DNA from: Candidatus Nanohalarchaeota archaeon
Lineage (GTDB): Archaea > Nanohalarchaeota > Nanosalinia > Nanosalinales > JAFCCC01
Direction of reading: 5' to 3'
DNA length: 39,313 bases
NCBI GenBank assembly: GCA_017610385.1
Contig: JAFCCC010000005.1
Location: 1-39,313, forward strand
The position numbers and the translations under genes were made by a program. Under the pieces are notes generated by a model, which had not been told where the DNA came from, did not search any database, and saw only the letters and a program-made list of their open reading frames with translations. The stretch's first letter is position 1. Each line of letters begins with the position of its first letter. Shown here one piece after another: positions 22,922-28,837 of the stretch.

Positions 22922-24376
22922 CTATTGCTCTTGTTGACCTTCCCAAATACGCTTGGAGATCTTCTGTAACTCTTGCGGATCGATTTCTCCGTTAATAATT
23001 CCCGTCATAATCTCTTGGAACATTTCTCCGTATTTCTTGCTTTTCTTCTGGAATTCCATCGCCGTCTTTTGGGATAATGGCCTTCGGCAATTCCAGCATA
23101 AACTTCTGTCTCCTGAATTAGTACTGCCACATACACCACAAACAATGCTCTCTTTTTTGTTATCTTTGATCTCGTATCCGTACAATTCACTTAGTACGGT
23201 TTTATCGGTTCTGCTATCATTCATATGAATATAAGTTCCGGGAGTTCTCGAGCCTTGGGCCCAACCAAACATAGAACACATTGTTGCTTCCCCTAATCCA
23301 CTTTCCGCAACAATAGAGGCTCTACGATGTCTGAAATTATGACAATATATTTTACTTGAATCTATTCCTGCTTGTTTGGCCTTAGTTTTAAGAAGCATTC
23401 TTAACGCAGAATAATTCAACGGCTCCCAATCTTTTGCTTTAAAATTACCGCAAGTTGCTTCAAAGGGATATTCACTATTTTTTAATTGATATCTTCCGTC
23501 CTTCACCTTTTCAAATACGCCTTGTTTGATCAAACTATTCTTCTTGTCATATAACAAGTATTTAACGACCCTTTGCGAAAGGCCGGAAATCTTTGCCAAA
23601 TGTTCCACACTCCAAAGCACGTCTCTTCGATTTGCCACAAAGGAAAGTAGAAGGTCTCTGGAATGCTCTCTCTGAGTTTTGCCACAATGTACGCAAGTAG
23701 TCCGTTGTACTTTGATGAATAATGGTGCATCAGGATCTTTTGGACTTAGTGGATCTCCTCCAGCAGGATGTTCTGCGATCCAATTTAGTAAATCTCTAAC
23801 ACACTTAACAACTCTAACAGATCTGATTTTTGTTTTACTTTTGGAAATTGTAATCTTTGCTCCATACTCGTCAAAAATAATATCTCCTAGTTTGATAGAT
23901 AATAATTCAGCTGCCCTGAATCCAGATTCTTCCAATAAAGAAATAATTAATCTTGAACGACTATCGTAACAAACAGAAAGTAATTTTTGAATATCTTCTT
24001 CTGTAGGCATGTCAGATGGAATTTTAGAATTCTTAGCTTTCTTCATTGATTTAAAAACACGTGTTTTACGTGGGAAATCTTCTCCGTCTCCTTCCATCAC
24101 TTTGTAGAATTTTCTGATGGCCACTCTGTAATCATATTTAGTATTTTGAGCATATTTTGACTGATTAATATTATACGCCAAGCGTTCTAATTCTTCTTGA
24201 GTAGAATCAATTAATTTAAATTCAGGATTCATTAATTTGCGAATTGCATTAAAAGAAACTTTGTATTTTTTTATTCTTATTTCACTTAAACCTTCAACAC
24301 TACATTTGTGTAAAAATCTATTTACAGCTCTATCATTTTCCCATATAACGTCTACGACCATTATATTCGACCCCAT
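22922..24376 (-). CDS. Tyrosine recombinase/integrase with C-terminal zinc ribbon and internal Zn-finger/wHTH insertion
   Basis: Catalytic R154 (SGFRAAE), K181, H346-x-x-R349, W372, Y382; CGVC...CWNC ribbon; adjacent to tRNA 3' end. Confidence 0.93.
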   Translation of the reverse strand: MGSNIMVVDVIWENDRAVNRFLHKCSVEGLSEIRIKKYKVSFNAIRKLMNPEFKLIDSTQEELERLAYNINQSKYAQNTKYDYRVAIRKFYKVMEGDGEDFPRKTRVFKSMKKAKNSKIPSDMPTEEDIQKLLSVCYDSRSRLIISLLEESGFRAAELLSIKLGDIIFDEYGAKITISKSKTKIRSVRVVKCVRDLLNWIAEHPAGGDPLSPKDPDAPLFIKVQRTTCVHCGKTQREHSRDLLLSFVANRRDVLWSVEHLAKISGLSQRVVKYLLYDKKNSLIKQGVFEKVKDGRYQLKNSEYPFEATCGNFKAKDWEPLNYSALRMLLKTKAKQAGIDSSKIYCHNFRHRRASIVAESGLGEATMCSMFGWAQGSRTPGTYIHMNDSRTDKTVLSELYGYEIKDNKKESIVCGVCGSTNSGDRSLCWNCRRPLSQKTAMEFQKKSKKYGEMFQEIMTGIINGEIDPQELQKISKRIWEGQQEQ

Positions 24377-24431: not shown

Positions 24432-24524
24432 AGCCCCGAGAGAGATTCGAACTCCCGACCTGCTGCTTACAAGGATCGACCAGTATAAACTGTCAGCCGC
24501 TCTGGCCAGCTGAGCTATCGGAGC
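24432..24524 (-). tRNA. tRNA-Thr(UGU) with 19-nt intron at non-canonical position 30/31 (intron 24475..24493); CCA not encoded
   Basis: GCTCCGA/TCGGGGC acceptor, GCTC/GAGC D-stem, GCTG^C-CTTGTAA-GCAGC after splicing, GTTCGAAT T-loop; BHB: CGGC/GTCG helix with TGA and ATC bulges. Confidence 0.92.
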
Positions 24525-25834: not shown

Positions 25835-26608
25835 TCAAATCAGGTTTTCTTCTTGTAAGAATTCCTTATATGCCTTTGTTAATGTAGAATTAGTTTTTTC
25901 TGGATTTGTTTGAACTAAATCTACTGCAGAATCTAAAGCGATCTTTACTTTCTGTATTGTTTCAGTCGCCTTAGGAACGTTTAAATACGCATACGAATCT
26001 GAATCAGAAGCAATATCTCTTGCAAGTCCCCAATTCCCTTGTAACCTTATTAATTCATCAGAAACATATGAACCCAATGGATCTGAATATTTGGAAAAGG
26101 GATGGATCATTTTCATCCATTTCCTTACATTCTTTAAAATATCATCTAAATCCTCTGGACGAAGCTTCATGTCTTCTTTTTTTAATAAACTGTCAATAGA
26201 AATCACAGTATCTCTTTCTTTATCTAGTGCACCAATATTCATACGAGTCAAAGAATCTATAATCCGCGGTAAGTTAATTTGATTTGAGAATAATCGGTCT
26301 ATCTCTTCAAAAACCTGTTCTGAGGTTCTTGTTAGTATCTCTTCTTCTAAAAGTTGATCATAACCTAATACCTGAATCTTCCCGTAAGTAGGTTTTTTAA
26401 CAAATAAAGAGGAGAAAGGATCTCTTGTAAAAACACTGACATCAGATACTTTAACTAAGGTGGGCTGGTCAACACCGCTGGTAGGGAATACTCCATAAAT
26501 TACATTAATAGGCAAACAAGAACCATAAGATGATTTTAAATCTGTTTGCTGCCTTTTTTCTGATTCATCTATTCTATCACCATTTTTTCCTAAATCTGTA
26601 GAATTCAT
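25835..26608 (-). CDS. Hypothetical protein
   Basis: 257-aa ORF with no recognised motif. Confidence 0.65.
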   Translation of the reverse strand: MNSTDLGKNGDRIDESEKRQQTDLKSSYGSCLPINVIYGVFPTSGVDQPTLVKVSDVSVFTRDPFSSLFVKKPTYGKIQVLGYDQLLEEEILTRTSEQVFEEIDRLFSNQINLPRIIDSLTRMNIGALDKERDTVISIDSLLKKEDMKLRPEDLDDILKNVRKWMKMIHPFSKYSDPLGSYVSDELIRLQGNWGLARDIASDSDSYAYLNVPKATETIQKVKIALDSAVDLVQTNPEKTNSTLTKAYKEFLQEENLI

Positions 26609-26703
26609 GGTAAGTTATTTCTTTAGAAACTATAAATTCTTTGGTAATGCGAAAGTAACACGGAAAGAAATTATAAAGCAATAAAAATAAATGCATAGGT
26701 AAT

Positions 26704-26717
26704 TCCGAGCGCTCGGA
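26704..26717. repeat. Palindrome TCCGAGCGCTCGGA copy 2
   Basis: Identical to the core of 25774..25793; both are followed by a TTATTA-containing tail. Confidence 0.85.
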
Positions 26718-26780
26718 CATTATTAGTATTTTAAGACGGTAACTATGCAATTAGAACCATCGAGCTTATATTTATAGTGT

Positions 26781-27749
26781 TTGCACCAAATTGTAAAGGT
26801 GTTTCCTCTAGAAAATTATCTTGAAAATCTTGATCAAGAAATAAGAATATTTGGTGTAAATAAAATTCTAATGCAATTCCATAAAAAACATGGACAAGAA
26901 GTTATTGATAAATTACAAGAAACAATTCATATCTCGACATATTACAACTGGCTTTCTGGAAAAAGTCCAATACCTATAAAATTTATTAGAGCTTTCGCAA
27001 AATATGATCCAAACATATTAGCTAAATGTTATAACGAAATGACATATCTATCTGTATCAAGAAAAAAATGTATTTTACCAAAAAGTATGACTAGGAAACT
27101 TGCATATCTTATAGGCGTATTAAATGGAGACGGGCATATGCACAAAAATAGAAAATATTTTACAATAACAGTAGATTCTTTAGATTATATTCACAAAATA
27201 TTATTGCCTCATATTCGAAATCTTTTTGAATGTGATGGATACATTAATCACTTTGAAAATTACTATCGATTAGATATAGGTAGCAAAGTAATCCATTCTT
27301 TTTTGTCACTATTCTGTCCAGTAGGTAAAAAAACAGGGAAGTTATATGTACCAACCCTAATCAAAGAAAATAAAGAATTTTTGAAGGAATATTTGTGTGG
27401 TTTATTTGATACAGATGGATGTATTGGGTATGGTAAGAAAAAGAAAAATTTGTATTTCGTATTTGTCCAATCAGATAAAAAATTTGTCTTTGAGATCCAT
27501 CAGTGTTTGATTTCTTTAGGAGTTCATGTAAATCTTCCTAGAAAATTTATGTCTCCAGCAAAGCCCTATGCAAAAAGTAGACAATTAGAAGAATGGAGAA
27601 TTTATGTTGGATCTAAAAAAGATCTAAAAGATTTATTGAATATAATTCACTTTAAGCATCCGAACAAAATTAAAAAATCAAGAGAAGTTAAAGGAGAGTT
27701 AGATGGGTTCGGAGAGATTCGAACTCCCGACCTCTTGACCCAAAAGTAA
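26781..27749 (+). CDS. Free-standing two-motif LAGLIDADG homing endonuclease with N-terminal HTH-like region
   Basis: LAYLIGVLNGDG and EYLCGLFDTDG motifs; STYYNWLSGKSPIP HTH-like; no intein splicing motifs; start uncertain. Confidence 0.88.
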   Translation: MHQIVKVFPLENYLENLDQEIRIFGVNKILMQFHKKHGQEVIDKLQETIHISTYYNWLSGKSPIPIKFIRAFAKYDPNILAKCYNEMTYLSVSRKKCILPKSMTRKLAYLIGVLNGDGHMHKNRKYFTITVDSLDYIHKILLPHIRNLFECDGYINHFENYYRLDIGSKVIHSFLSLFCPVGKKTGKLYVPTLIKENKEFLKEYLCGLFDTDGCIGYGKKKKNLYFVFVQSDKKFVFEIHQCLISLGVHVNLPRKFMSPAKPYAKSRQLEEWRIYVGSKKDLKDLLNIIHFKHPNKIKKSREVKGELDGFGEIRTPDLLTQK

Positions 27750-27808
27750 CAGATCACTTTTGGTTCGCCACGTCAAGGCGACGTCATAACCGACTAGACC
27801 ACGAACCC
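27704..27808 (-). tRNA. tRNA-Val(GAC) with 31-nt intron at non-canonical position 43/44 (intron 27734..27764); CCA not encoded
   Basis: GGGTTCG/CGAACCC acceptor, TCGCC-TTGACGT-GGCGA anticodon arm, GTTCGAAT; BHB-like TGGC/GTCA helix with GAA and AGA bulges and a 10-bp intron hairpin. Confidence 0.92.
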
Positions 27809-27901
27809 AAATTGGCTCTCACTGTATTTCATTTTCTAATTAGGTTTTTATATTTAAGTGAGCTATTATTAGATCCCAGACACATACCGCATATGTTAGA
27901 A

Positions 27902-27950
27902 AAAATTTGAAGGATCAGATAAAGCAGAATCTCTCACCCTCTTCTTAATC
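27902..27950 (+). repeat. Inverted copy of the phosphatase gene 3' end (gene remnant)
   Basis: 45/49 identical to the reverse complement of 18326..18374; reads NLKDQIKQNLSPSS* versus NLKDQIRQNLTSTS*. Confidence 0.8.
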
Positions 27951-28146
27951 TGTCCAGTTCACCACACCTCCAGCTAGAAATCTTGTTTTCAGAGGGTTTT
28001 AGGTTATTGTATTGCGTTTTTGGGGTGTAAGAAATAAAGACGACATAGAGATTAACCTTTACCGCCTATTTTAACGCAAAAGTTTAAACAAGTAACGTAA
28101 TAGGAATATAAAAACATTTTTAATAATTCATCTCAAATTTAAAGTG

Positions 28147-28837
28147 ATGACAATAAAACTTTCTCCTTCTGACTTACATTTATTTCTTGAGTGTCCCGAT
28201 GCTTTTAATTGGCAAAGGTCAAAGGGATTAAAAGACCTTCTGAAACATCTCCGTCTTCTGGACTTGACAAAATGATAAAAGAACATTTTGAGGGATTTCT
28301 AGCATTAAATACGTTGCCACCAGAATTGAAAGAAGAAAAGGAAATCAAAAAATGTCATTTATTTTCTAATGAGTTTATTGATAAAAGCGAATCAAACACC
28401 CGTAGTAATGATTTCAATCTATTCAAGATGTTAACTTCAGAATGATTCAAACTCGTGATAAAAAATCTGGAGTCATTTTGGCAAACACAGTTGATGCTCT
28501 TTTAGTTGACGACAAGCACTTAGTAGCATTAAACCACAAAACAAGAGGATATCCCTTAAACAAAGATAAATATGCGCCTTACAGTTTAGAGATGGATTTA
28601 TGTAATTTCATTTTAAAAGAAAATGGGTATAATACCTCGGAATATGCCTTTCTTTTCTTTTATTATCCTGAAAAAGTCGATGAGAAAGGATATATTGTTT
28701 TTAATACAAAATTAATCGAAACCGATCCTGCACGAGGAGAAAAGGTTTTCAAGGATGCGATTAAGGTTTTGCAGATTGAAACTGCGCCAGAACCTTCGAA
28801 AGATTGTGAATTTTGTAAGTGGAGGAATAGTATCTAA
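28147..28837 (+). pseudogene. Degraded Cas4-like/PD-(D/E)XK nuclease (non-CRISPR)
   Basis: MTIKLSPSDLHLFLECP(frameshift)CF*LAKVKGIKRP; further break near 28445; C-terminal PEPSKDCEFC; catalytic D-x-K region degenerate (NHKT). Confidence 0.75.

Follow-up and report, generated by a model that had tools for sequence, protein, structure and literature searches.

LAGLIDADG endonuclease genes docked on tRNA genes in DPANN archaea and their possible link to non-canonical tRNA introns

The closest characterised analogue of the locus described here is SegB of phage T4, which is encoded by a free-standing nuclease gene among tRNA genes and follows the logic of a tRNA-targeted, tRNA-linked selfish nuclease. 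Its site includes the T-psi-C stem-loop motif, according to the SegB report (PMC2330249). SegB belongs to the GIY-YIG family and to a phage genome, and neither an intron nor an overlap with a tRNA gene is known to be involved. The gene analysed here instead encodes a LAGLIDADG endonuclease in a cellular DPANN genome, and it is fused end-to-end with one specific tRNA gene, tRNA-Val(GAC). It lies in a stretch of 39,313 nucleotides (nt) from a Candidatus Nanohalarchaeota archaeon (contig JAFCCC010000005.1 of assembly GCA_017610385.1), which is called the window below.

Other phage systems couple a free-standing nuclease with a neighbouring intron. In cyanophage S-PM2, the gene for F-CphI adjoins a gene whose intron interrupts the nuclease site; the psbA group I intron protects its carrier from self-cleavage and becomes mobile through the adjoining nuclease gene (PMC6083498, citing Zeng, Bonocora and Shub 2009). 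In the case of mobE and I-TevIII of phage T4, a free-standing nuclease mobilises a neighbouring intron that is unable to move alone (PMC2790892). F-CphI is an Endo VII-type nuclease and is paired with a self-splicing group I intron that interrupts a phage protein gene, and mobE encodes a phage HNH enzyme acting on the group I intron in nrdB. The F-CphI arrangement is the model that the first-pass annotation of this DNA had proposed for the window. The intron of the window, in contrast, is a short bulge-helix-bulge intron in a tRNA gene, spliced by a host enzyme.

The archaeal enzymes I-DmoI, I-Tsp061I, PI-PfuI, and TliVMA belong to the same protein family as the window protein and share its single-chain two-motif fold, as indicated by profile and predicted structure. 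These enzymes are encoded within rRNA introns or inteins, whereas the gene in the window is free-standing, outside the intron and on the opposite strand, and its product has an extra helical domain of ~95 residues at the N-terminus. A 2014 review describes the mechanism of archaeal tRNA intron transposition as unknown, and mentions only a protective idea, in which introns shield tRNA genes against integrating elements. A literature search that left most subscription journals uncovered found no description of LAGLIDADG genes docked on DPANN tRNA genes, nor of a nuclease linked to archaeal tRNA introns. The window is one instance of a regular arrangement, in which LAGLIDADG genes lie end-to-end with specific tRNA genes across DPANN archaea.

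The docked nuclease gene and its orthologues

The locus consists of the following parts. ORF stands for open reading frame and aa for amino acids.

26609-26780: upstream intergenic spacer, 172 nt; the divergent ORF beyond it ends at 26608
26781-27749, + strand: free-standing two-motif LAGLIDADG endonuclease ORF, 322 aa, from TTG at 26781 to TAA at 27747-27749 (ORF list)
27099-27134, + strand: LAGLIDADG motif 1, LAYLIGVLNGDG, residues 107-118, with the acidic residue D117 (alignment)
27390-27419, + strand: LAGLIDADG motif 2, YLCGLFDTDG, residues 204-213, with the acidic residue D212 (alignment)
27704-27749: convergent overlap of ORF and tRNA gene, 46 nt; the last 15 codons and the stop codon are antisense to the tRNA and its intron
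27734-27764, - strand: non-canonical intron, 31 nt, at position 43/44 (script listing bulge-helix-bulge geometries)
27808..27704, - strand: tRNA-Val(GAC) gene, 105 nt with the intron (Rfam RF00005, 54.5 bits)

The first-pass annotation had described an ORF that runs antisense into tRNA-Val, overlaps it by 46 nt, and terminates with TAA inside a 31-nt intron at position 43/44. Every coordinate of this description holds. The ORF is also free-standing, as had been stated, with neither an intron nor an intein as host; it lies outside the tRNA intron, on the opposite strand, and has its own upstream intergenic flank. The accompanying caveat, that an intron-less allele would end the frame a few codons later, is correct: removal of 27734-27764 gives a frame ending in DLRHVKATS and a stop.

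The Rfam alignment of the tRNA shows a 32-column insert after the anticodon stem. The anticodon loop, TTGACGT, reads GAC and thus Val. ARAGORN misses this tRNA by default and wrongly calls it Leu with introns allowed (-i). There is one Val gene each with TAC, CAC, and GAC in the window's genome; because the Val(GAC) gene is single, the window tRNA must be functional. The enumeration of bulge-helix-bulge geometries gave one 31-nt solution, with cuts after gene nucleotides 44 and 75. Gene nucleotide 44 corresponds to Sprinzl position 43, because the D-loop has one extra base. The motif has a central helix UGGC/GUCA, the bulges GAA and AGA, and an inner helix of 10 bp; it is of the relaxed kind, as the outer helix is not contiguous. 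Removal of the intron leaves a 74-nt tRNA with the variable loop AGGTC. For the splicing endonuclease, the window's genome shows one PF01974 match (97.7 bits) in a 184-aa frame at G000:C13:61589-61870. No group I intron was found in the window by Rfam.

The probable true start of the ORF, judged from the alignment with the N-termini of its homologues, is GTG at 26799; the database copy begins at ATG 26871. An A/T-rich, TATA-like stretch at ~26765-26776 may be its promoter. Pfam LAGLIDADG_3 matches the ORF with an E-value of 7.4e-13, and the PDB matches of the family profile are the endonuclease domain of the TliVMA intein, I-DmoI, PI-PfuI, and I-Tsp061I. An AlphaFold2 model built from 17 sequences has a mean predicted local distance difference test score (pLDDT) of 89.7 and a predicted template modelling score (pTM) of 0.88. 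Foldseek groups this model with single-chain LAGLIDADG enzymes (144 PDB matches at E <= 0.001), and the target-normalised template modelling (TM) score against I-DmoI and I-Tsp061I is ~0.65-0.71. The predicted structure shows the pseudo-dimeric alpha-beta-beta-alpha-beta-beta-alpha fold. A conserved helical N-terminal domain precedes this nuclease core in both the alignment and the model. G116, D117, and G118 of motif 1 are invariant in 17/17 aligned family proteins, and so are D210, T211, D212, and G213 of motif 2.

A search of 5.8 billion proteins, confined to near-length matches, returned 16 homologues of 193-331 aa with 44-56% identity, all of them unfused. Among 185,579 species, each represented by one genome, five close orthologues were found, and the next match falls to an E-value of 7e-19. 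Their hosts are Woesearchaeota, Iainarchaeum, Nanoarchaeota, Aenigmarchaeota, and one uncultured archaeon. A scan of 60 genomes related to the window's genome at order level did not detect the family; the best match there has an E-value of 1e-12.

Orthologue loci were taken from genome contigs (L022-L026) and metagenome contigs (L102-L111). L103, L104, and L106-L108 repeat L022, L023, and L026, and L109 is cut off, which leaves ten readable loci including the window. The neighbours were assigned by Rfam and by reading of the sequence, and the intron positions were read by eye; for the proteins among P0002-P0017 outside these loci, the tRNA neighbour was deduced from the protein tail alone. The orientation given below is that of the ORF relative to the tRNA gene.

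Window: Val(GAC), antisense, intron at 43/44
L022, L023, and L024: Val(GAC), antisense, introns of 31, 14, and ~33 nt, readable at 37/38
L026: Val(GAC), antisense, two introns at 29/30 and 37/38; the ORF stop lies immediately next to the tRNA end
L102: Val(GAC), missed by Rfam, antisense, T-loop intron of ~23 nt
L111: Val(GAC), antisense, intron-less; the ORF stop is one base from the tRNA end
L105 and L110: Val(GAC), sense, the ORF 3' end overlapping the tRNA 5' end, introns of 12-15 nt at 37/38; the contig of L105 ends within the tRNA
L025: tRNA-Ser(CGA), antisense, T-loop intron

At all ten loci, the 3' end of the ORF is docked on a tRNA gene, nine times on Val(GAC) and once on Ser(CGA). 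Both LAGLIDADG motifs are intact at 10/10. The docking of the window ORF is not due to chance.

The last conserved element of the protein in the alignment is an HPxKK...K/I helix, and the tRNA starts exactly where this conserved part ends. Fourteen homologues have a complete C-terminus; in 11 of them, the residues past this helix are translated from antisense tRNA, for example GFEP..., GRIRT..., or ...HVKATS. This comparison shows that most family members have no stop codon of their own and read into the antisense tRNA until a chance stop. Across the family, the tRNA edge follows the HP motif after 15-18 residues, whichever end of the tRNA is occupied. The conserved feature is the junction and not the overlapping tail. 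The family alignment shows no conservation of the tail within the overlap, the pLDDT of residues 311-322 is below 50, and the members stop at varied points of the antisense tRNA or just before it. The position of the stop inside the intron is therefore considered incidental, and a special significance for this stop codon was rejected on the same grounds. An insertion of the integrase type at the tRNA was also rejected, because no tRNA-derived direct repeat flanks the gene.

In the tree, the family is supported by 99/96 and the window belongs to an eight-member clade (98/96) with introns at 43/44, at 37/38, and in the T-loop. The clade of P0011, L105, and L110 (100/99) overlaps the tRNA 5' end in sense, and the rest overlap the 3' end in antisense. 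That members of one family occupy opposite ends of the same tRNA is consistent with a target inside it, which would then have to be interrupted in the carrier.

The A-rich Lys codons of the C-terminal HPxKKxK motif appear as T runs on the tRNA strand, ~25 nt past the tRNA 3' end (window 27750-27700). These T runs could double as a terminator for the tRNA.

Docking on other tRNA genes and filled and empty sites

More distant LAGLIDADG loci were examined from genome contigs (75 loci, L027-L101), and 71 of them are free-standing. ARAGORN placed a tRNA near the ORF 3' end at 40 of these loci and near the 5' end at three. Within 60 nt of the 3' end of a LAGLIDADG ORF, a tRNA is present in 38/70 cases in the genome set and 43/66 in the metagenome set. 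Other ORFs of at least 150 aa in the same loci served as control; only 24/370 and 14/230 of them (~6%) have a tRNA within 60 nt (Fisher p 1e-19 and 6e-23). A tRNA at the 5' end of the LAGLIDADG ORF is seen in only 3/70 and 2/66 cases (L027-L101 and L112-L181). The covariance model R1, introduced below, was tried as a general tRNA finder on the 75 loci and found only 45 tRNAs; these counts do not use it. Deletion scans with ARAGORN were noisy and served only to point to stretches that were then read by eye. Such loci are difficult for annotation, as the ORFs are called too short or too long and the adjacent tRNA is overlooked or wrongly named by tRNA finders.

The wider docking spans DPANN archaea and some other archaeal metagenome-assembled genomes (MAGs), and each subfamily has its own tRNA. 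Three subfamilies are as follows.

Arg(GCG): 13 loci, sense, 12 of them intron-less
Initiator Met(CAT): antisense, intron of ~28 nt at the T-stem/T-loop junction 53/54 in 6/6
Gln: sense, intron right after ~position 10 in 6/6, read by eye

The tRNAs for Trp, Ser, Gly, Leu, and others are also docked by LAGLIDADG genes. A second, unrelated LAGLIDADG family is present at L291 (G086:C20, 1501-2611), with a 350-aa ORF that matches the A1 profile at E 1e-18. This ORF overlaps the 5' end of a tRNA-Val(GAC) by 28 nt, and that tRNA has a 16-nt D-arm intron.

A covariance model of tRNA-Val, R1, was built and run on relatives of the orthologue-bearing genomes. Presence and absence at one locus were seen for the orthologue, between G061 (locus L022) and G066; the window's genome is the sole compared member of its family and genus. 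All 74 bases of the Val(GAC) gene in G066 are identical to the 74 exon bases of the gene in G061. The G061 gene has a 31-nt intron and is followed by a cassette of ~935 nt, which starts right after the tRNA 3' end. The G066 gene is intron-less, only a spacer of ~97 nt lies between it and the next tRNA, and no LAGLIDADG ORF was found at this locus. The flanks of the two genomes are 74-82% identical, and the neighbouring Val(CAC) genes are 79% identical. The tRNA-linked nuclease unit suggested by the first-pass annotation is supported in this respect and by its specific tie to one tRNA gene, with nine of the ten orthologue loci on Val(GAC).

A second system was observed in relatives of the window's genome, where tRNA-Val(TAC) has a D-arm intron of 31-40 nt. 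In G041 (L004, G041:C9) and G042 (L237, G042:C10), a different LAGLIDADG gene, of 326 and 334 aa, respectively, overlaps the 5' end of Val(TAC). G047 (L238, G047:C13) retains decayed pieces of the Val(TAC)-docked gene with in-frame stops. Six genomes, G054, G059, G015, G031, G030, and G050 (L233-L236, L240, and L241), have the D-arm intron with a clean spacer of ~50 nt and without the gene. Twelve further genomes have neither the D-arm intron in Val(TAC) nor the LAGLIDADG gene. G041 and G059 belong to the same genus and share an identical 31-nt intron; in G041, a cassette of ~1040 nt stands in place of the spacer and reaches the tRNA 5' end. The cassette boundary coincides exactly with the tRNA end in both filled/empty pairs, G061/G066 and G041/G059.

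One DNA sequencing run gave six short contigs. One of them is 99% identical to the window over 27460-27610, and two of the six are intron-less Val(GAC) genes of other organisms that match only exon 1. Neither an empty allele of the same species nor a joint was found among the six contigs from this run.

Introns of docked tRNAs and competing explanations

All association tests given here ignore kinship, and the counts are phylogenetically non-independent; the MAGs are incomplete and the introns were placed by eye. For Val(GAC), an intron is present in 8/9 docked genes versus 12/53 undocked genes (Fisher p 2.7e-4), in an undocked sample that leans to intron-less genes because the covariance model scores them higher. 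The undocked genes come from three groups. Among the order-level relatives of the window's genome, 27/60 were readable, of which 23 are intron-less and four have long canonical introns; the 43/44 intron was seen in none of these 27. Among the relatives of G061, 12/20 were readable (seven intron-less, five intron-bearing), and among those of G062, 14/20 (11 intron-less, three intron-bearing), with G095 dropped for an odd anticodon loop. None of the undocked genes in the three groups has an intron at 43/44. The introns of docked Val(GAC) genes occupy four or more different positions.

For initiator Met, which is docked by a sister family, the 53/54 intron is present in 7/8 docked versus 2/45 undocked genes (Fisher p 1.8e-6). 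The docked genes with the intron are those of L035, L053, L059, L067, G107, G109, and G127; the exception, G112, has a more distant nuclease. The undocked genes comprise 26 readable order-level relatives with no case (three cut or unreadable loci dropped), 18 relatives of G107 and G109 with one case, and the window's genome. Within one group of relatives, the ratio is 3/4 docked versus 1/18 (p 0.01). The 53/54 introns have a common form across hosts, AAG-hairpin-CTGYCGAA. The initiator tRNA-Met of the window's genome (G000:C13:49113-49218) has a 31-nt 53/54 intron of the same form, and two hidden Markov models detected no decayed nuclease beside it in C13:47000-50500. For Val(TAC), the gene or its remnant stands beside 3/9 alleles with the D-arm intron and 0/12 others (p 0.06). 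The docked tRNA has an excess of introns in three families, often in the arm nearest the nuclease; the latter is a trend only, with non-canonical introns in the nearest arm in 8/11 family-level cases (p 0.11). The co-occurrence of nuclease and intron proposed earlier is partly supported for Val(GAC) and Met, with exceptions such as L111. The link between intron and nuclease is suggestive, not proven.

The window ORF is probably a selfish, tRNA-docked and tRNA-targeted free-standing homing endonuclease gene, judging from its sequence and that of its relatives. Its product would recognise a site inside the conserved tRNA-Val(GAC) of genomes without the nuclease gene. During repair of the break, the donor's nuclease gene would be copied in, and its tight docking would maximise co-conversion. 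An intron in the adjoining tRNA arm would interrupt the site, so that the carrier would be immune and the intron would travel with the nuclease gene. The process would be a form of collaborative homing, with a protein-spliced archaeal intron in place of a group I intron. Once fixed, the nuclease gene would decay or vanish and leave an orphan intron. That the intron in this window is an immunity or cargo partner of the nuclease has slightly less than an even chance. The general proposal is tentative and rather doubtful: in DPANN archaea, docked LAGLIDADG genes may be what causes tRNA genes to gain non-canonical, protein-spliced introns and these introns to spread, with each family cutting its intron-less tRNA in the nearest arm, the intron serving as both immunity and cargo, and decay leaving orphan introns in the D-arm, T-arm, and variable region. 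If this is true, the docked nucleases would be the long-missing mechanism at the DNA level for the "transposition" of archaeal tRNA introns. If active, the docked enzymes would be natural meganucleases aimed at conserved tRNA sequences.

Several observations weigh against a role of the intron, and many of them speak for a competing explanation in which the docked gene is a homing endonuclease and the introns are bystanders. The enzyme would then recognise the tRNA end together with the spacer, or tolerate its own allele through point differences; insertion would destroy the site, and the introns would spread by an unrelated process common in DPANN archaea. This explanation is a serious possibility, although it falls short of being probable. 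The exact cassette boundary at the tRNA end and the constant distance of 15-18 residues between HPxKK and the tRNA, at either end, are in its favour. So are the docked tRNAs that lack an intron. The nuclease of L111 has intact motifs and lies beside an intron-less Val(GAC), and 12/13 Arg(GCG)-docked genes abut intron-less tRNAs. P0014 likewise has a tail that corresponds to an intron-less tRNA. The protective role that is documented for the psbA intron next to F-CphI is putative here, and some docked, intron-less cases contradict it. The intron is not stably co-inherited with the gene, because its position varies among 43/44, 37/38, and the T-loop within the window's own clade, and the Val(TAC) nuclease gene comes and goes on an intron-bearing background, with the gene present in G041 and absent in G059 beside the same intron. 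For these reasons, the suggestion that the nuclease carries one particular intron is not supported. Orphan introns are frequent: ~6/31 tRNAs of the window's genome have non-canonical introns, ~5/6 of these have no LAGLIDADG neighbour, and 5/12 Val(GAC) genes in the relatives of G061 have an intron without a nuclease gene. Several tRNAs in the G061 group have in common a family of T-loop introns with a ...TGAAGCAG(6-8 nt)CTGCTTCT... hairpin, with no nuclease gene nearby. Bystander introns, however, do not readily explain the excess of introns in docked Val(GAC) and Met tRNAs, nor the joint presence or absence of gene and intron between G061 and G066 with identical exons. One family at either end of the tRNA is also awkward for a site at a single junction.

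Two further explanations do not involve homing at this locus or give docking no meaning, and both have much lower probabilities. LAGLIDADG maturases exist, and the window gene could be a domesticated protein that acts beside its client, either as a maturase-like helper for the folding or splicing of pre-tRNA or as a DNA-binding regulator of the tRNA gene. In favour of this, the gene is undamaged and tied to a single tRNA, the bI3 maturase is among the Foldseek structural matches, and the conserved ~95-residue helical domain at the N-terminus could serve in nucleic acid binding. Domestication is nevertheless improbable, because both catalytic Asp residues are invariant in 17/17 proteins and the distribution is sporadic, with five close orthologues among 185,579 species representatives and 0/60 order-level relatives. 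The presence/absence pairs and the decayed copy of the sister family in G047 argue in the same direction. Archaeal tRNA introns are spliced by EndA, and one EndA-type gene is present in the window's genome; L111 has no intron to assist. In the other explanation, a mobile nuclease gene landed by a tRNA gene by chance and the overlap arose only because a stop codon happened to be missing, as the unconserved and predicted disordered tail would allow. This is hardly credible, considering the docking at 10/10 orthologue loci, nine of them on the same tRNA species, and the fact that, in two independent sets of loci, docking is ~9- to 10-fold more frequent than for control ORFs.

Other tRNAs and elements of the genome

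The window is contig C14 of a genome of 788 kb in 18 contigs, which is 93.5% complete and has a G+C content of ~31%. The stretch of ~630 nt upstream of the tRNA-Val gene (window 27809-28441) contains no ORF of at least 90 aa, and Rfam gave no match at E up to 1 in the ORF-free stretch 27780-28460.

Among the genomes of the G061 group, the hairpin-sharing T-loop introns are observed in Val-GAC, Val-TAC, and a neighbouring tRNA with multiple introns (L256 ~1672-1860, L262 ~2700-2860, L304, L305, and L308). The shared hairpin looks like intron transposition between tRNA genes. In the window's genome, tRNAs with at least two introns or with D-loop or T-arm introns are found at G000:C11:148624-148787, C11:143043-143177, and C3:10283-10394. 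Its tRNA-Lys(TTT) has a canonical intron and a 53/54 intron.

A second tRNA is present in the window at 24432-24524 on the - strand (93 nt, Rfam 45.3 bits), with a 28-nt insert in the region of the anticodon arm. ARAGORN calls it Ile-tat with a 4-nt intron, which is not credible. A 483-aa ORF of the Phage_integrase family (22922-24376, - strand, Pfam E 2.5e-16) lies 56 nt downstream of this tRNA. The integrase ORF and the second tRNA may mark the edge of an integrated element.

Two very long frames with LAGLIDADG domains, one of them of 2013 aa, are located on contig C8 of the same genome, at G000:C8:4417-10455 and at C8 27620-31132 on the - strand. They are probably intein-bearing genes.

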